Shown piece by piece: positions 9,519 to 63,239 of a stretch of 64,000 bases of DNA. The DNA is from Rhynchobatus australiae (Eukaryota). Each line of letters begins with the position of its first letter. Position 1 is the stretch's first letter. Under the pieces are notes generated by a model that was not told the origin of the DNA, did not search any database, and saw nothing but the letters and a program-made list of their open reading frames with translations. The DNA lies in the NCBI GenBank assembly GCA_034780895.1, contig JAUZTB010000127.1, positions 29,022,144 through 29,086,143 on the forward strand, written 5' to 3'. Both the position numbers and the translations under genes were made by a program.

Positions 9519-10267
9519 TATTAAAGATTAACAAGAATGCAACTGTGCTTTAAGCTGCTGTCTTTTTGAAGATAGAAGCAATGCTCGCACATTCTGAAAT
9601 GCTTTAAGGTGTCCTTCAAGTCGGTTTGCAATTGAGAAAGAGCTGCTGAGCAGAGGTATGGTGTCTTCCCCAAGTATTAACAATTTTAAAGAGTTAAAGT
9701 ATTACTTTCAGTCAAGTCAGTGAGAGTTTCCTGAATTGCATTTGCATATCTCTAAGCAAACAGCTCATGGAGGTGTCTACGTAAATATGGGAATAGACAA
9801 CCTGCTCAATCAGAGTTTAAGAGAATAAGAGCTTGAGGCCATAAAATAATTTAAAGGAATTGTGAATCTATAGATTCTTTAGAGGATCTATAAACAGTCT
9901 CAACCGATAACTGTAATATCCTGTTCAAACATGATCAATTCAGGACTGAAATTATGGCATGCAATATCACATCTAGTTATAGTGTGTTCTCCATGTTGGA
10001 ACTGTTGATTAAGAAAATGGTATATTCCTGAAATAAGAAAGTTTGCCCTTGACTTAAAGACCTCAAATAAAGTAGACCACAACAAATGTGATCAATCATA
10101 TAGATGTGTGGACCTAGAAATTGTACTACACCTCAAAGAGCGTAGTAAACCATCAATGGTTGGCCTTGCATGCAACAGAATCAGCCTGGCACACTTTATG
10201 TTCACAAAGTCTTTTCCCTCGCAGAAGAAACCAGTTTAAGTGCAGACGGCAAATTGAGTTTTAAATC

Positions 10268-10478
10268 ACCTTAACTTGTCACCTCTGGCCTCTGTCTCAC
10301 AGCGCCCCCTCTCCTTTTCCTAATGGCAGTCTCCCCTCTCCACTCTTACTCTTCTTGCAGGATTAAGACCTGAAATGTCAACAATTCCTTTCTCCCACAG
10401 ATGCTGCTTGACCTGCTGAGTTCCTCCAGCAGATTGTTTATTGTTCCAGATCCCAGCATCTGCAGTCTCTTGTGTCTC
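10268..10478 (+). mobile_element. Penelope-like element 3' terminal fragment with TSD
   Basis: Ends cacagatgctgcttgacctgctgagttcctccagc..ccagcatctgcagtctcttgtgtctc; flanked by tgagttttaa(a/g)tc at 10255-10267 and 10479-10491. Confidence 0.8.
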
Positions 10479-11444
10479 TGAGTTTTAAGTCTATTTATAT
10501 ATTAAATATTCATTGAAATAAAGTCTGTCCAAGGATTGGACGTAAGCTCCATCAGTTTAATTTTAAGTATCAATGTATAACAGCAAAACAAAGTTTTCTT
10601 TGCCTAACCCACTCTGGCTAAATGGAATGATTTATTGGGGATTCATTTGAAAGGTGGTTTATTTATGTATTTTGTGTACCCTAAGGGAAGCAGTTGTAAT
10701 TAGACAATTTATACATTCCTTTGTTCCTCGTTGCAGCAAATGAACAAGCTGTGATTGGGTGATAGATTTCCTTGTGATCATCCGCAATGCTATTAGTCCC
10801 ACATGCTGATTGTGCTGCACCTGGCAGTCAAGGGCAGGCTTGGTGCCTCATTCCACGTTCTCAAATATGTGATCCGATCTAATCTGTACCCTTGGCCACC
10901 ACTTCCTACCATCAATCAGTGCTCACCCTCCCTTCCACAGATATAGAGACAAGAAAGAGACTGCTGGCTTGAAAGACAGCTAAACAACAATATCACTCAG
11001 TGCAGAGCCGCACTATGGTTTTGACACCAAGCAGATTAACAATAGGTGCCAGCCCACTAGTCAAAGACAAAGGGTTGCATCTAATCACGGTCAGATCATT
11101 GGCAAAAAAATTGGGACAGGAGATGATAAATATACAAGTCATCTTAAAGGGGAGTGGAAGCAAACTTGACTACAACTTTCAGAAAAGAATTGGATTGATA
11201 CTTGAAGAGAAAAATTCAGGACTTGGAGGGAAACAGGATGGGAATCAGATCAACTCAATAGTGACTTCACAAAGCAATGGAACAAATAGCCTCTTCCTGC
11301 ACTGTACGACTCTTTAGTTAATGGCATGCATGGAATGCAAGCATACAATATGGACTGCTCATCTCAACTAATCTCACAGCTGACTGTCACCCTTGTTGCA
11401 ATGTTGAGGCTTTAACCTGAGTGTCTGCCTGATGCATAATTGAG

Positions 11445-11590
11445 AGTCCTAGACCACTGAAACAGGCCCTTCGGCCCACCATGTCTATGCTAACTATGAA
11501 GTACATATCTATACTCATCCCATTTACCAATGCTCCATCCAGAACCTTCTATGCCTTAGCAATTTAAGTGCTCATCTAGAGACTTCTAAC
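11445..11590 (-). mobile_element. CR1 3' tail
   Basis: aacaggcccttcggcccaccatgtctatgc is the reverse complement of the elasmobranch CR1 tail. Confidence 0.7.
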
Positions 11591-12035
11591 TTATGATGTA
11601 AAAACCAACTCCTTCAACTGTTGGCTATTTAGCAAAATGAGTCAGGAATATAGGTGTCTAACCCATTTTCACAAGTTCCATTTCAGGTTTGTTTAAATTG
11701 CATCATCTTACAACTTGGTCCTTTGCTTACACAAAATACAATGGCCGAAGGTCCAATTTATACACCATGCTTTAGGCAACCATCTTCATCCAAACTGTGT
11801 CATAACCTATACAACAGCCCACCATTGTCCTCCCCTATTCAATCCCACCATGATGTCTGAAGGACCCAGTTTGTTCCTGGACTCTACATTGATAAGAGAC
11901 AAAAACCTAATTTTGCAGAAATAGACCTTGGTCCATGGAACAATGGATACGCTGCTTATATCACCTTATATGCCCTGGCAGCCAAGCACAGCAAACTTCA
12001 CAATCCTCAATTTGAGAAGCAATGCCTCAGATAAA

Positions 12036-12787
12036 TGAAAATCAAAAATCTGCAGATTCTGGAAATCTGAAATAAAAATAGAAAATGCTGGAAACACTCA
12101 CAGGGTCACGCAACATCTGCAGAAAGAAAAACGGTTAATGTTTCAGGTCAGAACGAGGAAAGAGAGAAAACAAGTTAGTTTTCAGATGGGGGGAGAGATC
12201 AGTAAAATAAAGAAAATGGCCTGTTCTGATACAGACAGGAGCCTGCACTGGGCTTTTAATTCACCATCCCACTTCCATCCTGACCTTTCTCTTTGTGACC
12301 TCCTGCACTATTACAAAGCCCAACACAAGCTTGAGGAACAATGCCTCATCTTCCATCTGAGCACGTTACAGTCTCAGTATCAAAATCTCCAACGGAACAA
12401 GACTCAATCTATCTTTCTGTCTATAGCAGAATTGGCCATTTCTGTCTGTCACTTATTTGGCTTATTTTTTCTTTTTCTATTTGTTCAACCTGATGTGACA
12501 GCCACGGACCACAGCCTTACAATTAGCAACACATTACACAAACAAGCTTAATTTGAACCTGCAGGCTACTTCACTGCAATATTTACTCTTTTGATCTCAC
12601 CTTTTCAGAGATATTCCCTTTGTTATACCCATCCCTCCCCCACCTTCTCCACTGTTGAAAATTAACTTGTTTTCTCCCTTTCCTAGTTCTAACAAAGGGT
12701 CCTAGACCTGAAACATTAACTGTTTCTCTTTCCACAGATGCTACTTGACCTGCCGAGTGCACCCAGCATTTTCTGTCTTTATATCAG
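12036..12787 (+). mobile_element. Penelope-like element remnant with inverted terminal copy and GIY-YIG C-terminus
   Basis: Translation FNSPSHFHPDLSLCDLLHYYKAQHKLEEQCLIFHLSTLQ matches the PLE endonuclease end; about 12065-12150 is the reverse complement of about 12700-12787. Confidence 0.85.
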
Positions 12788-12875
12788 GTAAACTTTGGCC
12801 CAATCGTGTTTCCGATTTCCACCACTATTACATAAAACTGACAGCCAAGACTTCTGCTAATTTCTGGGCCCGAAG

Positions 12876-13264
12876 TGTCATGGTTCTGAGTTCTGACTCT
12901 CAGTTTGGCTCCTTCAATGCCTCGTTGTACAGCACATGGATTCCATGCTGGACTGTTGGCATAATGACACACACCCAAGCCCCATCAGGGGCCTAGCATA
13001 AGTACCTGTGTTTCTCTAGCACTAGTTGCCAGAGTATTGGTTATACTTTGGCTCCTGGCTGCTTAGAATGTTCTACTCTAGAGCAATCCTGTGTTCTCTA
13101 TTCCTGTTTGAAGATTCAGTTTGTGTTGGGATTCCTACTCAGATCTCTGAGGCAAGATTCCTTCCAGCTGGTGTTTGGTCCTGAGGAAGTATCCTACTCC
13201 ACTCCTGTACCAGTATGCTACATTTGGGTTCTCTGTGAGCTTGCTCTTGCTTAACAGTGTGATA
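12876..13264 (+). mobile_element. Solo LTR, copy 1 (strand is relative to copy 2)
   Basis: Begins TGTCATGG, ends GTGTGATA (decayed TGACA); flanks cgaag/ccaag (4/5 TSD); homologous to 29575-30010. Confidence 0.8.
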
Positions 13265-15409
13265 CCAAGAGCGCCAGGATTTAAGTTCAGGAGCCACTTT
13301 CACAGCCCTGACACAACCTATAGTGAGCCCACTACCCAGGAGGATTCCAGCGACCCTCTCAGAGGCAAGGAGAATGTGGCTTATCTCAAAACACAGGGAT
13401 TTGGATGTCTTCTACGCCAGTGGAGATCAACAGCCTGGAGATTCCATCTAGATATTAATTCCCTAGTATTGGGTGTAGGGGTGGGAGGATTATCTAGGTC
13501 ACAATGCAATCTTTGCCATGCAATCTTTGGCCTATCTTCCTGAGCACTTTACCTTCCTCTCCCTATTTAATGGAGGCTTGGTTACAGGTTGCAATCCCAT
13601 ATTTATGTTTCAAACTGCAATGAAAATCAAAGTTCTCACATCAGTTGATTTAAATGTTAAATGGCAACTTACCTATTAATAATAAAACTGCCTTATTGTA
13701 ATTCAGTCCCACTTGATATGGTATGTGTATCCATGTCCATAATAAGCCCCAGCATTTCCAATAATAGTGTGGCCAATGAGAAATAATGCAAGTACAATAA
13801 AACATTTGTGGTGTGATTGCAAAAGCTAGACTCAAATCTTTGCACAAGTATCATATTTAATTCCCAAAACATTTCTCAGTTACATCATTTCTGTTGACCC
13901 ATCAGACTTTTTTTTTCATTTACATTCCTACTTACTGGGTTCAGCTCTGACCGAGTCATTTCATCTTCCTCTCCAGTATAAGATGGTACACTTTGATCCA
14001 CACCTTTGCTTTAATGTTTCCATCCTTGTGACTCACTGCCTTCTCCAAATTTGTTTTATTTTCCCATCCTCATCTCAAACCACCATCATGAGTATAGACT
14101 TCAGAAGGATTAGATACTTTACAAACGCTTTGGTTATTCCTTGCTATGTTCTTGGTCCTCATCATCTCTCCTCACCAAGAGAAATGATTCCGTTAAGCGG
14201 AAATAAAGTAGACTTAAAGTACAGCTAACGTGAAATAAATCTCAATATAGGCTTATCCAGCACCCAAACTGTGCACTAAAAAAAATAAACAGTAGCACTA
14301 CAGGTATTAACTAATACTTTAACCTGGGAGGGTTAATTTATGGCCTGGCAGTCCAGTTTCACTCTCTAAGAACCTTTTCCTCTGTAAGTATAGAACTAAA
14401 TGATATTCCAACTATGTGAGAACAATTAATCAATTGCACCCAATTGATGAAGGCGTGCATAAAATTAAATAAATAAATGGCCCTGCCAGCAAGCATCAAT
14501 TGATTTATCAAGCCTCGCCAATTTAACAACTCTCCTGGCTGTGCAGTTCCTCTCATCAGTGAAAGCAAATCACAATTAAATAACTTTGTCCTGTTTCATG
14601 CTGCATATATTTTTTAATTTCCACATCCCCATTTAAGCCCCAGTTTTTAGGCTGTTTACTTTAAAAAATGTTGCTCATTCTCATCTCCCACTCCACCGCT
14701 GCTACCTCCATCCTCCCCACTTTCCCTTTATTACTCCCCATTCCATCTTCTGCTTCACTTCTAATTCCTATTTCATTTCCTCAATGCATAATGTACCTTA
14801 ATTCCTTCTCCTGTCTCAAAGGCTTTTGGTAAAAAATAAAGGCCCATTTCTCCCATTTTAAAAAAATGAAGGTGCCCATAGCTATAAACCTTTTAATGAA
14901 GGCCATTTTCTCATCAGCCTTTTTCTTTCTCTTCCCCATCCTCCCAGTCCCTTTAACTACCGTCCCCAAGCACCAACCCAAACTATAAACTAAATTCTAC
15001 AAACTGCAGCTCCTCAACACTCCAATTTCCCCAAATACTTATCAACATCCTGACCTTGTCAACCTCCTATTTCATCCTTTTCCCAACAACTATCCTCATT
15101 ACTTTTCTTCCCAACATTCATGACCTCCACAACTGCAACCTATTTTACTTCTTCTAATTACTCCAACACTACTTGCAAATCCTTGTAAACCATATCACTT
15201 AATTTTCCTTGGGACAAGCCTCTATATAAAGGTAGAACAACAGAGGGATTGCATCATCAACTTGAAATGTTAACTCTGCCGATCTGCAGAATCTCTTGTG
15301 TCTCCATATTAACTCTTCTTTTTCTTTCCATGGATCCTGTTTGAGTGTTATCAGCTTTTCTATTTTCATTCCATATAAGAGGGATTGAGGCTACAAGTGA
15401 GCACGTCAC

Positions 15410-15990
15410 CAGATGACCTATATCAAACTGTGGGAACAGAACTGAGAAGCACAAGTTATGTTGACCATGTGTTGAAAGCTGGTGGACCACACTTTCTGCG
15501 TTCTGTGCACTTTCCATATTATAAAAAGGTTAGCAGGAGACACTGGAGAAGCTGCAAAAAAATTTACTTGAATGATACAATAACAGAGAGGCACACTTGT
15601 CTGGAAAGAATGAAGAAGTTGCAGCTTTTTCTTTAGAAAAGGAGAAAATTGAGGGATGACCTGACAGGGATCTTCCAGATTATGAAAGGGATAGTGAAAG
15701 AACAGATGCACAGGAGAGACCAGAACTTGGGATTATTAATATAAGATCGTCACAAATAATTCCAAAATGGAATTCTAAAAGCACCTTTATATCCAGAGGG
15801 TAGATGGAAAATGTAACTTGTTATGTCAGGGAAAAATTGGGTCATTGTCAATTGTTGCACTCAAACTGAGCTGGTTAAGCATATAAGCAAGAAGCAAAAG
15901 GAAGGAAACAGTGACAGGATTTGAAACAGAGAAGTGAGTGCCTCATGCAGAGTATGAGCACTGCCCTGGGCCTGTTGGGTTGAATGATCT
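15410..15990 (+). mobile_element. Old CR1 LINE fragment
   Basis: ctggtggaccacac..ttctgtgcac..ctttagaaaaggagaaaattgagggatgacctga..; degenerate CR1 ORF2 end and tail. Confidence 0.65.
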
Positions 15991-16009
15991 CTTATATATT
16001 TCCCTGAAT

Positions 16010-16320
16010 AATACTGCCCAGGAAAAGGTCACTTAGTCTATTGTGCCCCTGTGAGCTCTCAGAAAGAGCTTTCTGATTAGTCCCCGTTGCTACACTTTTC
16101 TCATGGCTAATGTATTTTTTCTTCAAATATTTATCCAATATCTCTTTAAAAGTTTCCACTGAATCTGCTTTCACTATCCTGCTGAGCTGTGCATTTGAGA
16201 TCACAGTTCTCAGCATTAAAGGAAAGATCTCCAGCTTGCATCTAGTTCTTTTGACAAATCTGTGTGTTTTGGTTATCAGTGCTTCTGTCATTAGAAACAG
16301 TGTCTCCTCATTCTATAATT
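16010..16320 (-). mobile_element. Old CR1 LINE 3' fragment
   Basis: Minus translation IVKADSVETFKEILDKYL matches the CR1 ORF2 terminus. Confidence 0.65.
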
Positions 16321-16663
16321 GATCTACATCCACAAACCACAGTAACCAGTTCTTTAGTATGACATTTCTATTCAACACATCACTCACCCCTTATGATTCT
16401 AATGAGTTTTAGCCAACTCAGTACTGAACCAAATTATTGCATGTTTTTTCGCTACGGATTACTGCCGAGTTGGAATTGGCTTGAGATCAAACAAAACTAT
16501 TTAATAAAGGACTACAGCCGGCAAATAGGGAAGATTTATAAACTAGCAAGCTGGGCTTCATTTAAATCCCGATCCCAAAGGTATAAATGATGCAATGGGT
16601 TAGATTGCTGGCTCCCCCAATAATCCATTCACCCACCCCCACCCCAACCCCATCATAGGATCT

Positions 16664-18894: not shown

Positions 18895-18990
18895 ACCGGA
18901 TAGGTCATTGATCCAAAACATTCACTTTGTTTCTCTCTCCACAAATGCTGCCTGATCTGCCGATGATTTCCCATCAATTTTATTTCAGAT
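18895..18990 (+). mobile_element. Penelope-like 3' terminal fragment
   Basis: ggtcattgatccaaaacattcactttgtttctctctccacaaatgctgcctgatctgc..tttatttcaga. Confidence 0.7.
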
Positions 18991-28230: not shown

Positions 28231-28362
28231 ATGACTGAGGGTGGACTGAATTTGGTTCTGAAATGGAACCAACAAAAAATGAATAGTTTCACACTAGTTC
28301 TGTAGATTAGCTCCACTCTAGTAAGGAACATTGGAGATGAGGTGAAGTATTGGAGTGAAGGT

Positions 28363-28535
28363 ACACATGCATCTTTAGAGGGAAATGGACAGTCAAGGTT
28401 TCAGGTAAAGACCTTTCATCTGGACTGAAAGACCGACATGTCCATTTCCCTCCACAGATGCTGCCTGACCAGCTGAGTTCCTCCAGCATCTTGTGTGTTG
28501 CTCCAGATTCCAGCATCTGCAGTCTCTTGTGTCTC
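28363..28535 (+). mobile_element. Short hairpin Penelope-derived insertion with 15-bp TSD
   Basis: TSD tattggagtgaaggt at 28348-28362 and 28536-28550; inverted arms gcatctttagagggaaatggaca / tgtccatttccctccacagatgc. Confidence 0.88.
28390..28427 (-). ncRNA. Minimal type I hammerhead ribozyme relic
   Basis: cagtc CAGATGA a aggt cttt acct GAAA cc TT gactg: stems I and II pair, core has substitutions, so probably inactive. Confidence 0.6.
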
Positions 28536-29479
28536 TATTGGAGTGAAGGTGCTTTGCCATGAGTTCACAGCCTTGTCTGTACTGTGATTCGGCCTGTGGT
28601 GGATTCCTGTTGTAAGATTCATGGCAGGCAAGGAGCAAAGTAAAGCAGGGTTTGGAGGTGGGAGAGGAGAAGGGGGAACAGAGAGGAGAAGAGAGAAGTC
28701 AAACTACAAAGCCCTGCTGTGTGGAGTCATCCCTAGACAATTGTTGGTTATCCCAGTAATTACATCAATATAAAAATAAAAGTCAACACAAGGCACAGCA
28801 AATGTTACCAAATCACATTGACCAACTGCCCTTGTCCTCTTGTGCTGGTCTTTAGGTTTCTAAGCAATGGCTGAAGCATGGCTGGTGAGAGGCTATTAAC
28901 TTTCAGTGGAGGATTCAGCTTATGGTGTTTGGGTCTAACTTAAGTCACTTCACTCGAAATAAAGTTCTTAATTTCTCAAAGGCAACTTGCCTTCTTTAAA
29001 TCCAGTCTGTATTGCTAATTGCTTACCAATTTGATCTTGGATTATGGACTGTAAGAGCTCGTCACAACTGATATTAAGTAATGTATTTGTGGTTGTTGAA
29101 TTGAATCATCCTTCCAATCTTGAAAAAAAACCTATTGCAAACTTGATGCTTAAACTACTTTTTTTTAAAGGGATTTGAATATTTTGCAGCTTAGCTTCTG
29201 TACTTTGCATTTAGCACTGATGGTGAATGCCAGAAGGACTCAATGACTCTCAACCTTGACTTTTATTCCTTTAAGTTAATTAAATTAAAGGCTTGACCTT
29301 ATTGTCTGAACAAGTAAAAGATAACCTATCAGTCAGAATTTCAGCAAGCATTGCAGTTCCATCCATAGTTTCTCATAATTGAAATTCCACTTCATTACAA
29401 AGTCAACATGTAAAACAAAAGAGAATATGGGAATTGTAAATGTACCATCTCAGCACATGGTGCTAAAATGGAAATAACA

Positions 29480-30220
29480 CATGGAAAAGTCACAAACAAG
29501 GGGACAAAACTACAAAATAAGGAGCTGGTCATTAAAAATGGTGCGTGTAGAAGTTTCTTCTCTCAGAGGGTAATTGTCACAATGTTGAGCAAAGAGCAAG
29601 CTCACAGAGAACTCAAATGCAGCACACTGGTACAAGACTGGAGTCAGGATANNNNNNNNNNNNNNNNNNNNNNNNNNNNNNNNNNNNNNNNNNNNNNNNN
29701 NNNNNNNNNNNNNNNNNNNNNNNNNNNNNNNNNNNNNNNNNNNNNNNNNNNTGAACTGAATCTTCAAACAGGAATAGAGAACACAGGACTGCTCTAGAGT
29801 AGACCACTCTAAGCAGCCAGGAGCCAAAACATACCCAAAGGTTGATCAATACTCTAGTAACTAGTGCTAGAGAAACCCAGGTACTTATGCTAGGCCCCTG
29901 ATGGGGCTCAGGTGTGTGTCGTTAAGCAATCAGTCCAGCATGGAATCCATGTGCTGTACCACAAGGCATCTAAGGGGCCAAATCAAGGGCCAGTGCTCAG
30001 AACCATGACAGTAATGATTCTTGGGATATCTCTGTCCAGAAGGGTGGTGGACACCAGATCATCAGATATATTTAAGGCGGAGGTAGATAAATAATCAAAA
30101 GATCAAGGAATTGAGGGCCATGAGGAACTGGCATCGAAGAGGAGTTGAGGCCGACCTAGATCAGCTATGATCATATTAAATGGCCGGCCCAGTCTGGTGG
30201 CTTGCTCCTGCTTCTACTTT
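29480..30220 (+). mobile_element. CR1 3' fragment interrupted by a solo LTR
   Basis: ttcttctctcagagggtaat | gattcttgggatatctctgtccagaagggtggtgg..atttaaggcggaggtagata rejoins into continuous CR1 sequence. Confidence 0.8.
29575..30010 (-). mobile_element. Solo LTR, copy 2, inverted relative to copy 1
   Basis: Termini TGTCA..TGACA; perfect 5-bp TSD gtaat (29570-29574 and 30011-30015); reverse-complement homology to 12876-13264. Confidence 0.88.
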
Positions 30221-32249: not shown

Positions 32250-32606
32250 AGTCATGGAGGTGTATAAAACCAGGAGGGGCATAGATGGGGTGAATGCGCA
32301 CAGTCTTTTTCCCAGGGTTGGGGAATCAAGAACTAGAGGGCATAGGTTTAAGGTGAGAGGGGGGAAAGATTTAATAGGAGCCTGAGGGTGATACCTATAT
32401 GGAAGGAGCTGCCAGAGGAAATGATTGAGGGAGGTACAATAATAACATATAAAGGACATTTGGGCAGATATGTGGAGAGGAAAGGTTTAGAGGGGTGTGG
32501 GTCAAATGCTGGCAGATATGACTAGGTTAGATGGGTATTTTGGCTGGCATGGATGAGTTGGGCTCAAGGGCCTGTTTCCGTACTGCATTACTCCATGAAT
32601 CTATGA
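32250..32606 (+). mobile_element. CR1 3' end
   Basis: MEVYKTRRGIDGVNAHSLFPRVGESRTRGHRFKVRG plus tail gggcctgtttccgtactgcattactccatga. Confidence 0.92.
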
Positions 32607-32699
32607 ACTGGGCCAGGCATTGCGAAGGAGAAGAAGAGGCAGACCCTGCCTCTCATTGTCAGAATTTAATATCAGATGATGGAAGTACTCAGTAGTCCG

Positions 32700-33270
32700 G
32701 CAGTATTAGTGGGGAGAGAAGCAGAGTCAAAGTTTCAGATCAAGAACTCTTCGTCTGAACTTCATGAGAAAACAGACATGTTGCATAGAGGGAGAAAGGT
32801 GGATATACCAGCAGGAATGTATGTGATAGAATGCAAAACAAAGTTGTCAAGATTTAAGGATGAAAATTGGATTTAAGGACAAGATTTAAGGACAAAAAGA
32901 GAAGAAAAAAATTACCACAGAGAAGCAGAGCCACATCTATAGAGATTGTTAAATCCAAAATTAGGTCCTGGCTGAAATTTACCCAGACAGAAAATGAGAT
33001 GCTGTTCCTCAAGCTTATGTTGGGATCATTGGAGTAGTGTGGAAAGTTGGAGGCAGAGGTCAACATGGGAGTGGGGTAGAGGGATAAAGTGACAGGCAAC
33101 TGGAAGCTCAGGGTTACTCTTACAGACTGAATGGAGGTGTTCTGCAGAGTAATCACCTGATCTGTGTTTTACTTCTCCACTATAAAGAAGATCACATCAT
33201 CAACACCAAATGTAAAACTGAATTGCTACTTCACCTGGAAGGACTGTTGGGGTCTCTGGATGGCGAGAAC
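32700..33270 (-). mobile_element. Penelope-like element remnant (GIY-YIG region and 3' end)
   Basis: Minus strand reads approximately CDLLYSGEVKHRSGDYSAEHLHSVCKSNPELPVACHF..QHKLEEQHLIFCLG. Confidence 0.8.
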
Positions 33271-33651: not shown

Positions 33652-33906
33652 TTTAATTTTTTTTTAAATTTTATTTACAGTGTGGTAACAGGCCCTTCTG
33701 GCCCAACAAGTCCGCGTCGCCCATTTTAAACCCCAAATTAACCTACCTGTACATTTTCAGAATGTGGGAGGAAACTGGAGCACCCGGAGGAAACCCACGC
33801 AGACACGGAACAACGTACTAACTCCTTACAGGCAGCGACAGGAATTGAACCCCGATCGCTGGCGCTGTAATAATGTTGCGCTAACCACTACGCTACCGTG
33901 CCACCC
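33652..33906 (-). mobile_element. V-SINE (HE1-related), relatively young
   Basis: tRNA-like head gggtggcacggtagcgtagtggttagcgc..ggggttcaattcc; V core gtgggtttcctccgggtgctccagtttcctcccaca; A-rich tail; many CpGs retained. Confidence 0.92.
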
Positions 33907-39034: not shown

Positions 39035-39445
39035 TAAGTTGAGAGCACTCTCTCCTCCAAATCAGAAGGTTTGGGGTTCGATCCCTGCTACAGACTGTAA
39101 TACCTAGTATAACATGATTCTCCACAGAAGGAGTGCTACATTTAGAATTGCCACCATTCTGATGAGATGTTGAGACTTTAGGCTCAGTCTGCTTGCATAA
39201 GTGGTAAATAAAGTCCAATACTAAACGAGAAAGGGCAAGGTCCTAGTTAACAGTCCTCCTTTAATCAACATCATTAAAAACACATTATCCGGTCATTCAT
39301 TCATTTACCATAGTACGACCTTGCAAGACCTTGTTGTATGTAGAATTGCAGTCAGAATTGCAGACACAACAACAGAAAAAAGAAACCATTGTCTGTAAAG
39401 CACTGATGACTTGGTAAGGCATTGGATAAATGCAAGTTTATTCTT
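39035..39445 (+). mobile_element. Deu-domain SINE
   Basis: agcactctctcctc..atcagaaggtttggggttcgatccc head; attatccggtcattcat core; tail ataaatgcaagtt. Confidence 0.65.
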
Positions 39446-42229: not shown

Positions 42230-42411
42230 CTCTGTTAGATATTGCCATCAGAACAGCACAACTATTGAATTACTGCATGATCAAAACTATCAATGATGGA
42301 ATATATTTAACAATTGTGTTAATAAACCTTAACACGACATCAGTAACAACATTTTAAAATGTACTCCACTGTCCATTTCGTGATCATGAAAGCTGCTAAG
42401 TGAATACAAAT

Positions 42412-42892
42412 CTGCATGGTGGAGAGCATTCTGACTGGTTGCATCATAGCCTGGTATGGAGCCTCCAATGCACAAGATTGCAAGAGGCTGCAGAGGGTTG
42501 TAGACTCACCCAGCTCCAACACGGGCACAACCCTCGCCACCATTGAGGACATCTTCAAGATGCAGTGCCTCACAAAGATGGCATCCATCACTAAAGAATC
42601 TCACTATCCAGGACATGCCCTCTTCTCGTTACCACCATCAGGGAGGAGGTACAGAAGCCTGAAGACCCACACTCAACAATTCAGAAACAGCTTCTTCCCC
42701 CCACCATCAGATTTCAGAACGGTCCATGAACCCATTAACATTACCTCAATATCCCTTTTTTTGCACTATTTATTTATTTTTTGTAATTTGTAGTAATTCT
42801 ATGTCTTTGCACTGTACTGCTGCTGCAAGACAACAAATTCCATGTCATATAAGTCAGTGATAATAAATCTAATTCTGATTCTAATTCTGATC
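42412..42892 (+). mobile_element. Rex1/Babar LINE 3' end
   Basis: VESILTGCIIAWYG..LQRVV..HYPGHALFSLPPSGRRYRSLKTHTQQFRNSFFP, then aataaa and an (attctg/a)n tail. Confidence 0.9.
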
Positions 42893-43064: not shown

Positions 43065-43670
43065 AGGCAAGGCACAGCCAGTAGACCTGCTGCCTCACAA
43101 CTCCAGTGATCTGGGTACAACCCTGACTTCCAGTGCTGTTAATGTGGAGTTTTGGATGTTGTCCCTGTGTCTCCAGGTTCTCTGGTTTCCTCCCACATCC
43201 CAAAGATGTGCAGGTTGGTAGGGTAATTGGTCGCTGTAAATTTCCTCTAATAGGTAGGTGAGTGATAGAAAGGAGACACAAGAGACAGCAGATTCTGGAA
43301 ATCTGGAGCAACACAGAAAATGTTGGAGGAACTCAGCGGGTCAGACAGCATCTATGGAAGGAAATGGATGGGCAATGTTTTGGGTTGAGACTGTTCATCA
43401 GGACTCAACAGTCAATGTTTCAGGTCAAAACCTCAAGAAAAGTCTTGACCCGAAACATTGACCATTGACTGTCCATTTCCCTCCATAGATACTGCCTGAC
43501 CCACTGAGTTCCTCCAGCTTTTTGTGTATTGCTCCAGATGAGTGATGGAATTTTGGGGGTGGTGGCGGGGGGGGGGGAACAATGGGGATGTAAGCAGTAT
43601 AGGCTACAAGGAAAATAAGTGAGGAATAGGATTTCTATGTGAGCCAGCCATGAACTTAATGGGCTAAAAT
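43065..43670 (+). mobile_element. HE1/V-SINE interrupted by a Penelope-derived hairpin
   Basis: gctgcctcacaactccagtgatctggg..ggtttcctcccacatcccaaagatgtgcaggttggtagg; resumes after 43538. Confidence 0.85.
43271..43538. mobile_element. Foldback Penelope-derived insertion with 12-bp TSD
   Basis: TSD tgagtgat(a/g)gaa at 43259-43270 and 43539-43550; about 43302-43368 is the reverse complement of about 43472-43538. Confidence 0.9.
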
Positions 43671-46714: not shown

Positions 46715-47946
46715 GGAGACACAAGAGACTGCAGATGCTGGAATCTGGAGCAAAAACAAACTGCTGGAGGAAATCAACGGGTCAAATAGTATTTGTAGAG
46801 GCAGTGGGATAGTTAACATTTCGGATCAAGACCCAGCATTAGGACTGAGTGGGTGGAGAGAAGGTAGCCTCTCAGAAGGGGAGAGGTGAAACAGGGGCTG
46901 GTGGGTGATGGGTGAAACCAGGTGAGGTGGGAGATGATGGGCAGATGGAGCCAGGTGAGGGAGGGGGAGATTAGGGGGCGAGAGGTGGAAATGGGTAAGG
47001 ACAAAACATAAGACAATGAGCAGATGGAGCCTGCTGGGGTGGGGAGGGGTAAGGCAACCTGGAAGGGCTGTTTTGACCCCTACATCTCCCTCCTCATCAC
47101 TACCCGGGGACCAAAACATCCCTTTCAGGTGAGGCAGAGATTCACGTGCACCTCCTCCAACGTCAACTACTGCTTTTGGTGCTCTTGATGCAGACTCCAG
47201 TACGTCATTGAGACCAAGCATAGACTAGGTGACTGTTTTGTGGAGCATCTGTGCTCTGCCCACAATGACCATCTTGAGTTTGCATGTCACTTCAGCTCCC
47301 CTTCCCATTCCCGCACCAATTTGCCGATTTGCTCCAGGTTTTTTGCTCCAGATTCCAACGTTGCAGTCTCTTGTGTTCCCACACCAGCCTGCCTGTCTTG
47401 GCCTTCTCCACTGCTGTGGTGAAGCCAAACAAAAACAGGAAGAACAACACATGATAGTCCATTAGTGCAGCCTACAGCTCAGTGATAATGAACACTGAAT
47501 TTTCCAACTCTCCATGTGTTCCTTTCTCACTCCTACAGGTCCAGCTAGGTTCTCTCTCCCTTTATTTACCTTTCCCATTTCCATCTGACCATAACCAACA
47601 CACCTATCCCCCTGGGGTTCTCCTCCCCTAGCCTACCCTCCCCATTCCCTCCCCATCCGACCATCATCCCTCCCTTATATGGTTCCACGGAACACCTTCC
47701 AGCTTCTGTCTCTTACCCCTCCCCTCCCCAGCTAGCTCCATTGTTTTTAGTTTTTTTCCTTAACTGGTTCCACCTATCACCCACCACCCCCTATCTCACC
47801 CCTCCCTCTAACCACTTTACACTAGCTATCTTCCCTCCACACTCTCAGCCCTGGTGCGGAGTCGCAAACCGAAATGTCGACCATCCTTTTACCTCCACAG
47901 ATGCTGCTTAACCCACTGAGTTCGTCAACTAGTTTGTTGTTTGCTC
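46715..47946 (+). mobile_element. Penelope-like element: inverted 3' copy, GIY-YIG endonuclease pseudogene and 3' UTR, nested in a Deu SINE
   Basis: About 47108-47510 translates GPKHPFQVRQRFTCTSSNVNYCFWCS*CRLQYVIETKHRLGDCFVEHL..FACHFSSPSHS..LGLLHCCGEAKQKQEEQHMI; about 46747-46925 is the reverse complement of about 47765-47946. Confidence 0.92.
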
Positions 47947-47947
47947 A

Positions 47948-54282: not shown

Positions 54283-54657
54283 AGAGTCACAGAGTCATAG
54301 AGTAATATGGCAGAGAAACAGGACCTTCAGCCAACTCCTCCATGCTGACCAAGATGCCCATCTAAGCTAGTTCCATTTTCCCATGTTTGGCCCATATCCC
54401 TCTAAACCCTACCTATCCATGTACCTGTCCCAGTGTCTTTTAAATGTTGTTATTGTATCTGCCTCAACAACTTCCTCTAGAAGCTCGTTCCATATATGCA
54501 CCACCTTCTGCGTGAAGAAAATGCTGCTCAGGTCCCTTTTAAATCTTTCTCCTTTCACCTTAACTCTTTGCCCTCTAGTTTTTGATTCCCTTTCCCTGGT
54601 AAAAAAAAGACTGTGCATTCACCCTATCTATGCCCCTCATGATTTTATATACTTCTA
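54283..54657 (-). mobile_element. CR1 3' end
   Basis: ESKTRGQRVKVKGERFKRDLSSIFFTQKVVHIWNELLEEVVEADTITTFKRHWDRYMDR. Confidence 0.93.
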
Positions 54658-54822
54658 TTATAGGATTATGATGTGTGGGATAGACCCTATGTGTGATAAT
54701 CTTATAAATAATAACACAAGGTATACATACCATCCATCAGCAGAATACAAGAACAATTATATATGGTACTTTCAGCAGACAGTGACCCCCTCACAAATTC
54801 CAGCAACAGATCAAGAGCCACA

Positions 54823-55425
54823 ATTGAGTTCAAGAGCCACGAAGTGATGTTGCAGCTCTATAGAACTCTGGTTAGACCACATTTGCAGTATTGTGTTCAG
54901 TTCTGGCCACCTCATTATAGGAAATGATGTGGAAGCTTTAGAGAGGGTGCAGAGGAGACTTACCAGGCTGTTGCCTGGATTGGAGAGCATGACTTATGAG
55001 GATAGGTTGNNNNNNNNNNNNNNNNNNNNNNNNNNNNNNNNNNNNNNNNNNNNNNNNNNNNNNNNNNNNNNNNNNNNNNNNNNNNNNNNNNNNNNNNNNN
55101 NNNNNNNNNNNNNNNNNNNNNNNNNNNNNNNNNNNNNNNNNNNNNNNNNNNNNNNNNNNNNNNNNNNNNNNNNNNNNNNNNNNNNNNNNNNNNNNNNNNN
55201 NNNNNNNNNNNNNNNNNNNNNNNNNNNNNNNNNNNNNNNNNNNNNNNNNNNNNNNNNNNNNNNNNNNNNNNNNNNNNNNNNNNNNNNNNNNNNNNNNNNN
55301 NNNNNNNNNNNNNNNNNNNNNNNNNNNNNNNNNNNNNNNNNNNNNNNNNNTAGAGCAGGATAAAATGTTGGCACAACATTGTGGGCCGAAGGGCCTGTAC
55401 TGTGCTGTAATGTTCTATGTTCTAT
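54823..55425 (+). mobile_element. Young CR1 3' fragment spanning a gap
   Basis: DVEALERVQRRLTRLLPGLESMTYEDRL; tail nearly identical to 27161-27210. Confidence 0.92.
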
Positions 55426-55582: not shown

Positions 55583-56215
55583 TTAAAACAGAGTGCTGGA
55601 AACACTCAGCAGGTCTGTGAAAGAGGAACAAAGAACTGGAAGAGTAAGAAAACAATTTAGTTTTAAACTGCAGAGAGAGTGGAGGGATGAATAGGACAAA
55701 GGGAATATCTCTGATAGGGTGAGGCCAGCGTTGATGACAAGCTTTATATGACGCCATCTGGTTGATAGATTGACGAGAAAGTTTAGAGAGAGAAAACAAA
55801 CAAAGGGACATGAAAAAGCTCTGAAATGAAGGTCAGAGCTGTTGCAAAGAATTGAAACCAAAAGGATTATGTTGTAGATGCCCAGCAGATCAGGTATTAC
55901 CTGTGGAGGGAGAAAAACTTGGTGAATATCACAGATGGATAACCTTACAGATCTGATAGAAGCAGAGAAATTGAGTTATCTGAAATTGATGAATTCAATA
56001 TTGAGTCCCAAAGGCTGCAACTTGCCCCGTGGAAGATGAGTTGCTCTCTCTCAAGCTTACATCTGGTTGGCAGGCAAACAAAAGCTTTTCACAATATCTC
56101 GGTACAATATTTAGTACCTTACAGCCCATAGTACAATAATAAGCCAGTTACCAATTACCTGTTGGACCATTGCAGTGGGCCACAGACACATAGGGTAGAG
56201 TGGGAGTTAAAATGG
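55583..56215 (-). mobile_element. Penelope-like element remnant
   Basis: gtgctggaaacactcagcaggtc..caaagggaatatctctgatag..tctgaaattgatgaattcaatattgagtcc..gaagatgagttgctctctctcaagctt; homologous to 12036-12787. Confidence 0.75.
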
Positions 56216-59200
56216 AACAACGTTCTGTTCCCTATACCTCCCTCTATAACTGCCTGCAGCATAAAGTGTTAAACATCATAGATGGCATCAAAAACATCAG
56301 GTTCAAAAGGGGTATGTTATAGATTTGTCCTAGGGATTCGACAACATAATGCTGCATTTTCAGCGCTACATATGGAAGTGATTTTTTCCCCTGAAACTTG
56401 GGCGTCTGGTGCCACTGAATTTCCATGCGGCAGATTCATGATCAAAACAGTCATCAATGTGCCATACAATGAGTGATTAACAGGCCATTTGAAGCACCAG
56501 TAAGTTACTGGACAGTTAATCCGATCAGCACATTGGCTTCAATTCAGTTAACTAGAACCAAAATTTAACGAGACACCATATTAGTAACAAGGCACAACAA
56601 TGATCCTTTTGTTGTCCAAGTTAATTAGATAACAGACTTTATTTTTAAACTATTCTGCAATCATGAGGCTGCACTTACGATACTATGGCTGTTACTATTC
56701 TAAAATGATACCTCACTGCTGGCTCTGGATGTGGGCCCATGTCATCTTATATACGTGTTCTTTCCCCTTATAGTAACCAGCTGGAGTAACCACAACTTGC
56801 AGTTACATATCGTGCCTCAAGAACTTTTGATGTGGCAATCATCTTGATTTGGATGATACAAAATGGCCCAAAGATGTTGAAGAGATCATGATAAAGAAAA
56901 AAAACTTTTAACTGAGTTCAGCTGGAGATATTAGGGCAAAACCCCATACTGACAGCTCCTATTCTATTAGGTGAGATCAGAGGTACTTGAGCAATAGTGC
57001 ACTAGGACTCAAATATGCTGGCTGTGCAAAAGCTCATTTGTCAAGTCTTTTTAATATGATAACTTATTATTAGCAGTTCACATGAATTAGACTAAATGTC
57101 TTCACCTAAATTATAGATCAGTTATGTGCAGAGATATACTTACAGCTAAATATTGTACTTTAGAGCATAGGAATCTTCAGCATTTTTTTAAAAACTGGAA
57201 GCTTTAAAGTTTATGTGTTTGTGCTCATTAAGGTTAAGCGTGATAGGGCTGTGCAATATTTTTGTACTTTCCTTCTGATATAATTACCAAGTGTTCACAG
57301 CACTCACTGCTCACAGCAACACTCCTTCAACAAAATATCAAATTATTTTGGTGCATCAAAACAAAACAGATCATGGATTTTTTCATGGAGATCTGTAATC
57401 AGGCTCTTGCATTAAGTAGCTAGCTAAGTCTAGTATTAGAAACTCTCATACTGAGATACATTAAAGGAAATTCAGTCAATAGTGACTCTACTTAATTCCA
57501 TTAGCCATACCACAATGCTCCTTCATTTAATCCATTAGTATCTCGCTGATATCTTGCACTAACAGTATCCTAATACTGACTACATTAGATGGACCTTGCT
57601 AGGGCTGCTGACCACAACATTGTCACACTCCAGCAGCAGTTTGGGTAATTTTAGTTCATGTTTGCCCCTGGTATATTTGGGTTGAGTGGGATGATAATAT
57701 TTAAAAATCTGAAACATGAACCTAAAACACCTTGAACAGAAATGGGACAGATGGACGACAACCAAGCCACTTCCACAGGGCAATTGACTCTTTAAATATT
57801 CCAATGAAACTGCTTGAATAAGATTTCATTATTTTTAAACCTGGAAACTAATGGTGGCTGAGGAATACCAGCTTAAAAATGGACATGCTTTTCCAGAGCT
57901 CCCTGTGGTACTGGAAAAGCAGAAATGTCTCAATATAAACCCTCCCTTTCCACACCGCAAAAGGGTTTCTCCCAGAAGATGAGACTGCCAACCCATGAAT
58001 GAACTGCATCCCATCCTGTAACCCCACCCACAACCTTCCTTCCTCAACTGTGTAAAATCAGACCACACTCTGAATGATTGGACCATGTTTCAATCAGGCT
58101 CACATCCCCAACTCTCCAAATGGGACCCACTCATGGGTAATAAGATCCACGCTACTAGATTGGACCACGGAGATTTCAAACAAACCCATCCCTTGTGAAT
58201 AAACAACCGTCCTGTGGTCAGAGTCTTGACCCCCTGACCACCCCCCAATCCAGAACTGTTGAAGACACTGGCATTCAACAATCNNNNNNNNNNNNNNNNN
58301 NNNNNNNNNNNNNNNNNNNNNNNNNNNNNNNNNNNNNNNNNNNNNNNNNNNNNNNNNNNNNNNNNNNNNNNNNNNNNNNNNNNNNNNNNNNNNNNNNNNN
58401 NNNNNNNNNNNNNNNNNNNNNNNNNNNNNNNNNNNNNNNNNNNNNNNNNNNNNNNNNNNNNNNNNNNNNNNNNNNNNNNNNNNNNNNNNNNNNNNNNNNN
58501 NNNNNNNNNNNNNNNNNNNNNNNNNNNNNNNNNNNNNNNNNNNNNNNNNNNNNNNNNNNNNNNNNNNNNTTCTTGCAAATAGGCCTTGTTAACATAAACT
58601 TTCCCTCATACTTTCTAGAATGAAGCCTTCTGAAGCAGAGCCCAATACATTCTCATTATATTCTCTCCAATAGCAGCACATCAGTTGTTGATCCTAAGGC
58701 TCATTCCAGTAATGTTCTTCTCAATTATATCTCCTGTTGTGACAACACCCTAGTACTAATATTTATTTGACTTCCAGTGAAATCCATAGGAATATGTACA
58801 TTCCTTTTTTTAAGAACATTGTGTGATTAAAATTGTACTTGTGCATTTGTTATGAACTATTAAAGTAGTATTGATCAAATATAAACTAAATATCACAGTA
58901 CATAAATTATGAAGACTGCAAGCATAACCTGTTCTGAAAATCTTCCTATAATTCATGCTGTTTGACCAAACTGAGAAATGATCCCCTTGTTATCTGTTCT
59001 ATGATTCAGTTAAAAAGAATTTCAGAGTTTGAAAGGTGACTGACAGAAATTGTTTCATTTCTTTATTAGCAGGAAAGGAATGTAATCGTGTCAAAGGTTT
59101 GAGGCCTTCAAGGGAACCATTACATTTTTCTTAAAGGCAAACAACTTCCAGAGTAAGGTGGGATACGCATGTCTGAATAACTTGCTGCCATTAAATTACA

Positions 59201-60009
59201 GTTCGTCTTTGCGCAATTATAGTCATTGAATGGAATCCCAGTGTCAGTGTAAATTAGAGCTAATAGTGACCCAAAATAGGGCCTTAAAGGAATCAGGAGT
59301 CTCTCTTATTGTTGTTTTCCTCTACTGTCCGGATAGTTCAGTGCCTGTGTGGAACTGAGACAAATTACCCAAGAGCTTTAATCATTAGCTTGTACAAAGT
59401 TGCCTGATTCCAACTCCAGCAATGGAAAAGTTGGTGCAGTGAACCTTCAGAACCTGAGCTGGTGACCAGAAGACAATACCATTGACTTTAGCTTCTACTT
59501 CTGAACACTATCCATTGGTTAGTGCTGGAAAGTACCTGAGTGAGAGTGAGTGTGAGGGCAGGATAGGACTCAGTTATGAATTTCATGGTCAAATATATTG
59601 GAAGCAACCACTCTGTAGGCCTACACATGAAGAATAGATACCAGACTGTGGTCCCAGACAGTAACTTGTTACTGCAGGACAATAACCAGCACAAGCCGAT
59701 AGCAGAAAGGAAGGAGCAGAAAAAAATTCAAAGGAAAAGGTATGGAAATGAAGTAGATGAAAATCAACTCCATTATTAAATGTCAAGGATCTTGAGAAAG
59801 GTGAGGAGTAAGGTGACGGAGGCCTTCAGATTACAGAGTTTGCAGTATTCGCACAGAAAGAAACCACGAGTAAGGGTCTGGTAGGTAGATGGGAGTTTCC
59901 AAAAGTAAGGGCTAAGTATTACATCAACACAAATAAATGGAGTAGGGAACTGAGGAACTTTTATTTTAAACCAATGTATGGAATGCATGATCACAAGGAC
60001 TCTGGCAGT

Positions 60010-60762
60010 CTAGAGTCTGAGACTGGGACTTCCTTAATGCCAGAGGCTTAGATGGAGCAGAATTTGTTAGGTGCATCCAGGAGGATGCATCCAGCGCTGA
60101 TGTGCAGAGAGATCCTTGGGGTGCAAGTCCAAAGCTCCCTGAGAGCTGCGACACTAGTGGATAAAGAGATAAAGAAAGCACATGGCATGCTTGCCTTCTT
60201 TGGACTTTGAGTGTCATAGTTGGCAAATCATATTTGGAGTATTTTGTCCATTTCTGGTCGCTGCATTACTGGAACAATGTGGAGGCTTTGCAGAGGGTGC
60301 AGAAGAGGTTGACCAAGATGTGGCCTGGATTAGAGAGTATTAGCTATAAGGAGAGGTTACACAACTTGAATTGTTTTCTCTGGAGCACTGGAGGCTGAGG
60401 GGCAACCTAACGGAAGTATAAAAAGTTCTGAGAGGCCTAGACAGGGTAGAGAGTCGGAGTCTTTTTCCCAGGGTTGAAATGTCAGAGGGCATAGCTTTAA
60501 GGTGAGAGGGGGAAAGGTTAAAGGAGATTTATGAGGCAAGTTCTTTTTTCCATAGAGAGTAGTTGGTGCCTGGATCGCACTGCCGGGGAGGTGGTAGAAG
60601 CAGATATGACAGCAACTTTCAAAAGGCATTTCGACAGGCACATGAACAGGCAGGGAACAGAGGGATATAGACCATGTGCAGGCAAATGGGATTAGTTTAA
60701 TTTGGCATCATGGTTGACACATACATCATGGGCCAAAGTGCCTGGTCTCGTGCTGTGTTCCG
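60010..60762 (+). mobile_element. CR1 LINE fragment
   Basis: LEYFVHFWSLHYWNNVEALQRVQKRLTKMWPGLESISYKERL plus full 3' tail. Confidence 0.92.
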
Positions 60763-61800
60763 TGAGTGATGGAGGTGATAAGCAGAGACAACTTGAAGGG
60801 TCAACTAGATAAACACAAGGAGGAAAGAGCGGAGGGGCACGATCACAGATTTAGATGGAAAAGCAATGGGAAGTACAAGCATGCCGAGGACCAGCTGGGC
60901 CAAACAGCCTGTTTCTGTACCATACATTCTATGTAATTCTATATGTAATTCTATGTAAATATTAGTCTAATATGGCAAGTGTAATACATACTGCTACAAT
61001 CTGATTTTTCATTAAACACCTGCTGGGCCTTTATTCTGGTTTGATGAAGAGGTATTTACATGAAAGGTGGGTGACAAGAGAAATGCCTTCCCTTTTTGTT
61101 AAAAGAATTAGTCTTTGTCTCTTGGTTTAAATGATGTAATGTATCACACAACACCTGGGGTGGACAGAGACAGGGGAACATCAATAGAAAAGGTGCTTCA
61201 TTCTCTCAGATGTCAAGCCAAACATTCTGATGTACCTGGAGGCCAGGTAAAAGGTGACTCACTCCAGGGCTGCTGTGAACATTAACCCAGAGGATTCATT
61301 TCCACTACTTTCCCTCTTGCAGATTCAAATCTGCAATCATTTATGATGGTTGGCTTTGTATACTTTTTTTACAAGAAGTTTCTTGTTTTTATTAACTACT
61401 GCCACAACATTTAAGAAATTAATATATTTTCAGAGCTTCAATATCATGGATGGAAATTAAATTAAACTAAGTTTAATAACCTTTTAATCAGAAAACATTA
61501 CCACATCATTCTGATGGGCAGTTGACAAGGGTTTTGATACTGTTCAAATATCACGCTGGCAAAGGCAAGAGATTATTCAGACTCTAGTTACTTAGTCAAA
61601 GATGATCAGATAAAACAAATGAATAATATTTGAAATCTCCTATTTGGGAAGTAGCAGGAAGTTACAGAAATGCTGACATCAATTCAATCTCAAAATGTAT
61701 GTAGCTTCAAAAACAGGGCTGCTCTTTGTTTTATTTAATCTTGGCTTGTATATATGGAAAAAAATCTCACTTTCATTCAGTAAATACCCAGGTTGAAATA

Positions 61801-62017
61801 CAGGTCCTCCCCAGCTTATGAATGCGTGACTCATGTATAGCCCGTACCTACGATCGAGTGTTTGGGAGACCAGTGGGGAGACTAGCAGGATGGATTTGCT
61901 GCAGGCATCTTCTGCTGTGTGAGAACTTGGTTTGCAGCCGCATTTCCGACTTGCAAACTGTTTGGGTTACGAAGAGTTCACAGGAATGGAACCCTGCCAT
62001 AACCTGGAGAGGACCTG
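61801..62017. mobile_element. Tc1/mariner-superfamily (Tigger/pogo-like) MITE
   Basis: TA|caggtcctccccagcttatg .. cataacctggagaggacctg|TA: 20-bp imperfect TIRs and TA TSD. Confidence 0.88.
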
Positions 62018-63006
62018 TAGGTAATTAGAAGTCATTAGGTACAAGATGTATTTCTTGACATAAACATGCTGCAGGTCATATATCATACTAGAGTTAAGAC
62101 AGATCTCCTTCACAGAGCATGTCTTCTGAAAATTAGCCTCAGTGCAAAGTATTTTAATCTCATGGTAACAAAATGTGAACATTAAAACAGAACTAACATT
62201 GTTCCTCAAGAGCAGATTTAGTATCAACCATGAATTGGTCAGTGGGACAAGGGAAAAGAGTCTTCCAAGCGATCAGACATTGGGAAATAGGTTTCATGTC
62301 ACTGCAGTTGACAAGTGTGTCCACCTATGCATCAAATAAGGAGCAGCCTGTCAGCTTAATGTGTATAATCAGGCACCACGGCCCATTTAAAGCAGGAATA
62401 TTAAAGTAAGGTTACATATGTTGAGGATAGATTGTGCTTCAGGACTGCACTCTCATATATTAGTAGGAGCAAAGAGTTACATTGCTGCCCTGGGTTTTAT
62501 TGGAGGAGTTCAATGGCTAGGATTAGGAATGTCCTGATCACTCAGTGTAGAACTGAGACATAATGATGATGTACCAGTTCAGTATCAAAGTCACCAATGC
62601 TGCATGGACCTGTATTATTCTCAGGACTCAGTTAAAGGAGAGAGGAACCAGCCATCAGTGCCTGCAGGAACATTCCCAAAACCATTCACCAGATGGCCTG
62701 AAGAATGGCTGAAAGAACTAATGTGTCTTCAGGAAATGACACCTTCCTTTAAAGGGCATTACCTCCAGAACCTGCAATCNNNNNNNNNNNNNNNNNNNNN
62801 NNNNNNNNNNNNNNNNNNNNNNNNNNNNNNNNNNNNNNNNNNNNNNNNNNNNNNNNNNNNNNNNNNNNNNNNNNNNNNNTTCCTTTAAAGAGCATTACCT
62901 CCAGAACCTGCAATCAGCTTGGAAGGGCGAGCATAGCACCTTGTCTTTCTGGTTCTTTTAACATTTTACTGGAGCTCCTGAGGATAATACAGGCACATTC
63001 CGGCAT

Positions 63007-63132
63007 CCTGATGCAGGGTTTCGACCCGAATTTCATTTCCTTTCCTCCAACAGATGCCCCTTGACCCGCTGAGTTCCTCCAGCAGATTGTTTGTTGCTCC
63101 ATATTCCAGCATCTGCATTCTCTTGTGTCTAG
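63007..63132 (+). mobile_element. Penelope-like 3' terminal fragment beginning at the hammerhead core
   Basis: cctgatgcagggtttcgacccgaa..cagatgccccttgacccgctgagttcctccagc..tcttgtgtct; flanked by attcc(g/a)gcat. Confidence 0.8.
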
Positions 63133-63239
63133 ATTCCAGCATTGTTGACTTTGGTGCTTGTAAACATCTTGGCTATTATGTCTTGGTTCTACACTAGGGA
63201 CTGAATGACTATAACATCCCTTTCCCTACAACTCCCATT

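Follow-up and report, generated by a model that had tools for sequence, protein, structure and literature searches.

We analyzed a 64,000-nt window of the Rhynchobatus australiae genome (JAUZTB010000127.1, positions 29,022,144-29,086,143, in an assembly of 2.23 Gb) in which a short, recurrent motif resembles the minimal hammerhead ribozymes of Penelope-like elements (PLEs). The window is repeat-rich, with a G+C content of 38% and a CpG observed/expected ratio of 0.21, and no host exons were evident by eye among its open frames of at least 110 aa, a length that short exons could escape. Its motif-bearing repeats very probably derive from the terminal repeat of a PLE with an endonuclease, as decayed insertions that are either 5' truncated or folded back. 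The motif belongs to the known minimal type I hammerheads; in the RNA of active elements it likely cleaves itself, slowly and in dimeric form, whereas nearly all genomic copies are likely inert.

A profile of the terminus, trained on genomic copies and controlled by reversing the window or the genomic sample, located 15 copies or fragments of the motif within the window, whereas the reversed window gave none. Nine of these had been named in an earlier note on this stretch (at 10355, 12684, 18900, 28390(-), 43372(-), 43437, 46812(-), 47846, and 63007), and each does lie beside the same terminus on the strand proposed. The motif itself stands at most of these places, whereas it is only partial at 18900, which is 5' truncated and has lost its CUGAUGA half, and at 10355, where it is unrecognizable. 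The six additional copies or fragments lie at 12152(-), 28422(+), 32762(-), 43432(-), 55615(-), and 55956(-), with the CUGAUGA half also wholly absent at 12152 and 28422. Although a core consensus is present at the family level, all 15 window copies miss at least 2 of 14 core positions, which agrees with the note that none is fully intact. An Rfam scan of the window returned no hammerhead family at E ≤ 5. A match of that scan to MIR856 at 43324-43516 was rejected; it coincides with a fold-back insertion, and its score is far under the gathering threshold.

The great abundance that had been suspected is borne out across the genome. The exact pattern CTGATGA-N13-GAAACGT, which holds the core order CUGANGA...GAAA...UH expected of a minimal type I hammerhead with a palindromic ACGU, occurs 3,053 times, versus 15 for the reversed pattern, and one complete 28-letter form of the motif has 215 genomic matches versus 0 for its control. 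Sampling of large contigs at round coordinates gave 130 stretches, each of 10 kb (1,065,884 non-N bases in all), in which the profile matched 235 times, and 0 times once the sample was reversed. This density of one per 4.5 kb extrapolates to about 400,000 relics, a figure that counts each fragment and each arm of an inverted unit. Most are heavily worn: of 134 sampled copies that span the motif, just 3 have an intact canonical core, or 6 when subfamily variants are allowed. The motif holds three CpGs and therefore decays fast. Among 55 copies chosen independently of the motif, the CpG-containing positions 15.2/16.2 read CG in 17, TG in 16, CA in 13, TA in 4, and other dinucleotides in 5; the 46 copies with CG, TG, or CA, together with the low CpG ratio of the window, confirm the proposed CpG decay of a palindromic ACGT.

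Motif structure and subfamilies

Intact copies comprise, in order, the helix I 5' arm, CUGAUGA, an extra A, a 4-bp helix II with a 4-base loop, GAAA, CGU, a C or U at position 17, and the helix I 3' arm. Helix I spans 3 to 5 bp. A15.1 to U16.1 form the palindrome ACGU with no loop 3, as seen in 4/4 folded copies; a loopless minimal helix III of this kind requires that one copy pair with another (PMC4209133). Thermodynamic co-folding of a pair of copies gave arm-swapped duplexes instead of such a helix III dimer and was set aside as uninformative. A column profile showed the G10.1-C11.1 pair and one extra base between the core and helix II. Because the base after G8 is A in 66% and C in 28% of copies, while the following base is A in 91%, the extra base may precede A9 rather than follow it.

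Clustering of 114 of the 235 sampled copies on flank columns 46-92 alone yielded groups that also differ in the motif itself. The oldest-looking of them, an old group whose 47 copies are 77% identical to their majority, has AGUU/AACU as helix I and GUU as its triplet; a CUGAUGC-A group (26 copies) has a 3-bp helix I; a third group (23 copies) often carries CAGAUGA; and a fourth (8 copies) carries CYGAAGA. A young canonical group is also present, as evidenced by exact-core genomic matches. Two of the noncanonical cores have spread widely, with 2,055 exact copies versus 1 for the control and 1,941 versus 18. They are thus not stray mutations, and their subfamilies amplified about as much as the canonical one.

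Stem pairing had been noted to persist across variants, and at two positions it does. At the inner pair of helix I (C-G/U-A), a 5' T accompanies TA in 31/52 copies and a 5' C in 4/52 (P = 2e-8). At the base of helix II, A occurs with TG in 18 copies and with CG or CA in 1, versus 34 and 41 copies, respectively, for G (P = 6e-5); these P values count copies that are related to each other rather than independent events. A genuine A-U lineage is present at the base of helix II, and each compensatory change is one or a few lineage events. However, 34/52 forms with ACCT are products of CpG decay, and the remaining helix pairs showed no clear two-sided compensatory change.

Pooled core columns are 85 to 92% conserved, versus 31 to 89% for the spacer behind helix I, which points to selection in active lineages and neutral decay in copies. 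A second conserved block (73 to 89%) lies 16 to 50 nt behind the cleavage site, and a block common to the subfamilies occupies terminus columns 57-97 (e.g., window 43480-43520). The ends of the latter, GATGCTG...CAGCAT, could pair, and another CAGCATC occurs in an optional tail. The conserved block behind the hammerhead is possibly a recognition or promoter element.

Penelope origin and insertion ends

The Penelope origin that had been proposed is upheld by what lies upstream. Six-frame reading revealed three remnants of a GIY-YIG endonuclease upstream of motif copies in the window (Table 1), and first-look genomic candidates for the remnant at 33 kb numbered 18,144, of which 150 were scored. 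An endonuclease C terminus was followed by the terminus on the same strand within 700 nt in 10/14 sampled loci, 12/20 endonuclease-selected loci, and 5/5 motif-selected loci, counting those with sufficient room, against a chance expectation of 0.08 from density, with the motif mostly 180 to 400 nt behind the GIY-YIG stop. In longer loci, a reverse transcriptase (RT) lies farther upstream on the same strand, with N gaps in between. The order in the element is RT, Cys-rich linker, GIY-YIG, stop, a pyrimidine-rich tract of about 180 to 400 nt, the hammerhead, and a tail.

A 423-aa open frame with an RT core has a match to RVT_1 (E = 0.0012) that is weak and below the curated cutoff. Its 89 relatives, full-length proteins of 742 to 1,690 aa with best identities of 45 to 53%, contain RT and often GIY-YIG domains, and in 83 of them the last 200 residues include a CX2-5CxxC pattern. 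In Pfam, one of two frames beyond the eight fragments mentioned below gave RVT_1, and a search of solved structures with the RT frame returned no match. In the genomic copies, the linker motif is clear in loci L082, L083, and L089, whereas in L260 and L087 the pattern matched only cysteines at the start of the endonuclease. The RT frame and frames from RT thumb to GIY-YIG were seen in pieces, never as one intact open reading frame (ORF); most of the long open frames listed from the genome are lengthened artificially by runs of N. The relative P0001 fuses an APE-type endonuclease and a partial RT of a long interspersed element (LINE) to a PLE thumb and GIY-YIG, and from its makeup we take it to be a chimera or an assembly artifact in an unrelated record.

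Insertion ends were first measured in 89 copies selected on the core, a sample blind to truncation inside the motif. Fourteen are inverted fold-backs. In 65 others that are free of N limits, the sequence shared upstream of C3 extends up to 18 nt in 30 copies, 19 to 30 nt in none, and 31 to 240 nt in 35. At positions -1 to -5, 28 short copies match the long copies in 24, 21, 23, 17, and 12 cases, falling to background beyond, and 6/28 have an exact flanking duplication of at least 7 nt, versus 28/544 after shuffling. An independent sample was anchored downstream: a pattern 3' of the cleavage site has 2,102 matches, and of the first 70, which were taken, 10 were dropped for N. Among the 60 usable copies, 17 start at -9 to 0 (6 of them exactly at -3), 30 farther upstream, and 1 farther down; a cluster at -99 to -106 probably marks the limit of the reference copies. 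Only 2/60 start within 2 nt of the cleavage site, and one of these is an internal deletion by eye. The idea that 5' ends fall at the cleavage site is thereby rejected. At the 3' side, ends fall into two groups, 54 to 81 nt (47/84) and 94 to 115 nt (30/84) behind the core, and the tail behind the hammerhead is 65 or 105 nt; the offset of about 38 nt fits an optional 30- to 40-nt PLE tail. In sum, the copies keep an uncut motif, run past the cleavage site, and tend to begin at the helix I 5' arm.

The sequencing runs listed for this organism include none of RNA; RNA was available from a related species, as raw reads of three runs of one study and one contig set. The motif is deeply covered on both strands, 93 to 97% of the reads continue into unrelated sequence, a pattern that passenger copies would give, and fold-back joints occur near helix I. 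No pile of molecule starts or ends was found at the motif in these reads, a weak test because the libraries are fragmented and dominated by passenger copies. Neither a circular-type joint at the cleavage site nor a GT..AG joint was present among the joints examined (15 of 118 and 15 of 75).

Mechanism and alternatives

We propose that the element's endonuclease and RT would prime in the tail of an uncleaved (or religated) RNA. Copying would run into the untranslated tract and the ORF and stop at random; alternatively, it would reach an RNA 5' end that is fixed at helix I and run off there, yielding mini-insertions of 100 to 140 nt. This fixed end is probably a transcription start within a terminal repeat. 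An RT stall is expected on the 3' side of a structure, which is met first, and the pile-up on the 5' side therefore fits run-off better. The inverted units may arise when the end of a completed cDNA folds back and primes on its own strand. After insertion, the three motif CpGs would decay and the core would be lost. As for the ribozyme, its most likely role in an active element would be to act as a dimer and slowly trim or circularize the RNA, as has been proposed (PMC4209133).

Several observations weigh against this interpretation. The wide spread of two noncanonical cores puts the need for catalysis in doubt; natural hammerhead core variants are rare and often slow, and these two are not mentioned in the portion of the literature consulted (PMC3088659, in part). 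The predicted fold of an intact copy favors an alternative pairing within the core (-12.4 kcal/mol, versus -10.2 kcal/mol for the hammerhead helices), and 10/60 downstream-anchored copies begin inside the core. Pfam gave no relevant family for eight genomic endonuclease and RT fragments, such that the GIY-YIG assignment rests on relatives (P0001, GIY-YIG E = 2e-4) and on motifs. Moreover, no intact full-length element or tandem was found among 13 long loci, whose interiors or 5' ends are N gaps; a tandem that would make an RNA start at helix I is unobserved because young long copies are N-gapped in the assembly.

We also entertain, as a rather unlikely extension, that transcripts start with the hammerhead's first bases, the helix I arm doubling as an initiator, and that the mini-insertions are run-off copies of uncut RNA. 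The subfamilies that have A at position 4, or a C following G8, would then be new working variants, with the extra base before A9, or cleavage would be dispensable for transposition.

That the motif is kept chiefly as an internal promoter or as a structure recognized by the RT or endonuclease, with cleavage weak or vestigial, we regard as improbable. Helix I does contain an initiator-like YCAGTY with ACGT about 28 to 31 nt downstream, 5' ends do pile up at -3 to -5, and noncanonical cores have been amplified, one subfamily retaining a helix I of only 3 bp. However, the initiator consensus is short and common, and compensation in both helices, together with the kept GAAA, G5, A6, and G8, fits an RNA catalytic core better. 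Drosophila Penelope offers a precedent, with an internal promoter in its terminal repeat and a downstream RGACGTGY element (PMC2377424), although its transcription begins some 120 nt upstream of the hammerhead. The low published activity of minimal hammerheads in vitro, where the monomer is inactive and dimers cleave weakly (PMC4209133), would also suit a promoter.

The earlier note had posited a system of ribozyme-processed mini-elements, which would be nonautonomous, retrozyme-like units whose RNA is cut to unit length, circularized, and reinserted. The many 100- to 140-nt units with fixed starts and target duplications, one of 15 nt at 28348/28536, are what such a system would leave, a circular template would equally fit copies that read through the site, and PLE terminal repeats have been put forward as the origin of animal retrozymes (bioRxiv 10.64898/2026.07.22.740005). 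Nevertheless, the units begin before the core and almost never at the cleavage site, and their lengths grade continuously into copies with the untranslated tract, endonuclease, and RT. The window holds no tandem arrays of the unit, and copies are dispersed or inverted; the genome was not searched for arrays. With the uncut motif kept, intact cores this scarce, no circular-type joint among those examined, and no pile of RNA ends in the relative, weak as that test is, we consider this explanation distinctly improbable and the copies better understood as truncated or fold-back ends of an autonomous element.

Finally, splicing to the CAG at the end of the pyrimidine tract, so that short copies stem from spliced RNA, is hardly credible and, with a donor at the stop codon, largely refuted: the tract is strongly acceptor-like, GTAA is conserved at the stop codon, and the intron end of Drosophila virilis Penelope maps to helix I (PMC4209133), but the expected junction pattern from GTAA to helix I had 2 matches versus 3 for the control, both in unspliced context, short copies retain the G (23/28) and A (17/28) of AG, and GT..AG joints were absent from those examined. 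The ORF stop often lies within a conserved, donor-like GGTAAC (in the window at about 55956-55990(-); elsewhere in L006, L022, L082, and further loci), and the hammerhead has an acceptor-like tract on either side, but no spliced form turned up.

Features of the window and known systems

The coordinates of the PLE features are collected in Table 1. Two of the insertions are longer inverted units (12050-12790 and 46716-47947).

Table 1. PLE-derived features of the window, with positions counted from its first nucleotide
Feature	Position	Strand	Remarks
PLE terminus, CUGAUGC subfamily judged by flank	10356..10479	+	5' half of core decayed or lost
Inverted 5'-truncated arm of insertion 12050-12790	12050..12184	-	Without CUGAUGA half
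Decayed C-terminal piece of PLE GIY-YIG endonuclease	12255..12371	+	Translation read by eye; DNA match to 32972-33024; under tblastn cutoff
PLE terminus, old AGTT/AACT subfamily	12680..12787	+	G5, G8, and G16.2 lost
Old-subfamily terminus, 5' truncated	18899..18971	+	Without CUGAUGA
Fold-back insertion	28348..28550	both	Minus arm 28431-28369 (CAGAUGA subfamily), plus arm 28422-28536; exact 15-nt target-site duplication (28348-28362 / 28536-28550)
PLE terminus, core decayed	32671..32762	-	182 nt past endonuclease end
GIY-YIG endonuclease remnant with stops	32939..33196	-	47% to genomic copy, E = 1e-17
Fold-back insertion	43273..43539	both	Arms 43406-43273 (minus) and 43432-43539 (plus), with a short minus-strand fragment at 43432-43408; exact 8-nt flanking duplication; predicted to form one long hairpin (-144 kcal/mol) that would bury both hammerheads
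Inverted arm of insertion 46716-47947	46716..47053	-	Holds the 3' untranslated tract, a relic of the hammerhead (46850-46745), and the complete tail
Forward-arm linker and GIY-YIG remnant	47078..47477	+	Broken by tail fragment 47326-47376
Forward-arm hammerhead relic and tail	47843..47947	+	338 nt past projected stop
Two strongly decayed old-subfamily termini	55586..55956	-	55956-55856 and 55723-55586
Minimal insertion beginning at helix I, CUGAUGC subfamily	63006..63130	+	ACGUC deleted

Other repeats share the window. Three related fragments, at 32254-32606(+), 54287-55008, and 60229-60714, presumably represent the 3' end of a CR1/L2-type LINE, and an open frame of 129 aa at 42404-42793(+) resembles what we take to be the end of an L2/CR1-type RT. 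A repeat of about 400 nt has two opposite copies (12876-13262 and 29577-30010; 85 to 88% identity), the first directly behind the PLE insertion at 12050-12790. Short repeats at 5229-5266, 8919-8956, and 39044-39081, and at 33741-33789 and 43171-43219, are, we assume from their resemblance, tRNA-derived heads and a body of short interspersed elements. Near-identical local duplicates occur at 8946-9061/9403-9518, 45852-45899/46000-46047, and 62744-62779/62880-62915; the latter two pairs lie on either side of 100-N gaps and probably reflect overlaps in the assembly.

PLE-terminal hammerheads, dispersed singly or in inverted pairs, are already published for many animals. What this genome offers is a natural record, on a very large scale, of insertion ends and of subfamilies that followed one another. 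The record bears on where PLE RNA starts and on how inverted and mini-insertions originate, and also on whether the element benefits from its ribozyme or simply carries it as a passenger. Most deserving of experiment are the fixed 5' start and the amplified noncanonical cores, and four or five natural versions of the core provide a ready panel for cleavage assays. PLE-associated small hammerhead variants and their cleavage as dimers were reportedly the subject of a 2016 paper by Lunse, Weinberg, and Breaker, to judge by its title. Our literature search found no relevant paper on Penelope hammerheads in sharks or on PLEs of cartilaginous fish, two supplement files of PMC4209133 contain no shark terms, and a search on PLE hammerhead transcription start and truncation yielded nothing relevant beyond PMC8557442.

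The closest likeness is to the minimal hammerheads that metazoan PLEs carry in their terminal repeats, among them Xena, Poseidon, and Neptune of fish, as described in the text of PMC4209133. Common to both are the type I topology, the short helix I, the extra base before helix II, the G10.1-C11.1 pair, and a palindromic 15.2-16.2 without loop 3, as are dispersed singles from truncated PLEs, inverted pairs, and several consensus families per genome. Helix II has 4 to 5 bp here, versus 7 to 8 bp in Schistosoma. Thousands of intact copies and hundreds of thousands of decayed ones occur here, whereas a strict descriptor found 4,000 to 9,000 in coelacanth and frog, and the subfamilies with U4A or with C after G8 go unmentioned in that text, figures aside.

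The coding portion recalls Neptune and Nematis PLEs (PMC8557442), which likewise have an RT, a CX2-5CxxC linker, and GIY-YIG at the C terminus, along with heavy 5' truncation, an inverted 5'-truncated arm, and an optional 30- to 40-nt tail. Truncation, inversion, and tails are typical of PLEs, while the linker sets Neptune and Nematis apart from Penelope/Poseidon (PMC8557442). By that linker pattern the element here would be of the Neptune or Nematis type, although no intact full-length copy was seen. Animal retrozymes that lack long terminal repeats share the type I hammerhead, the PLE origin, and protein-free short copies (bioRxiv 10.64898/2026.07.22.740005); however, they form tandem arrays with a hammerhead in each unit, whereas the copies here are dispersed monomers and fold-backs that are continuous with the 3' end of a PLE. 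The short palindromic stem III is likewise that of the small PLE-associated hammerheads reviewed in PMC6765202, for which dimer cleavage is described, as is predicted for the active elements of this genome.

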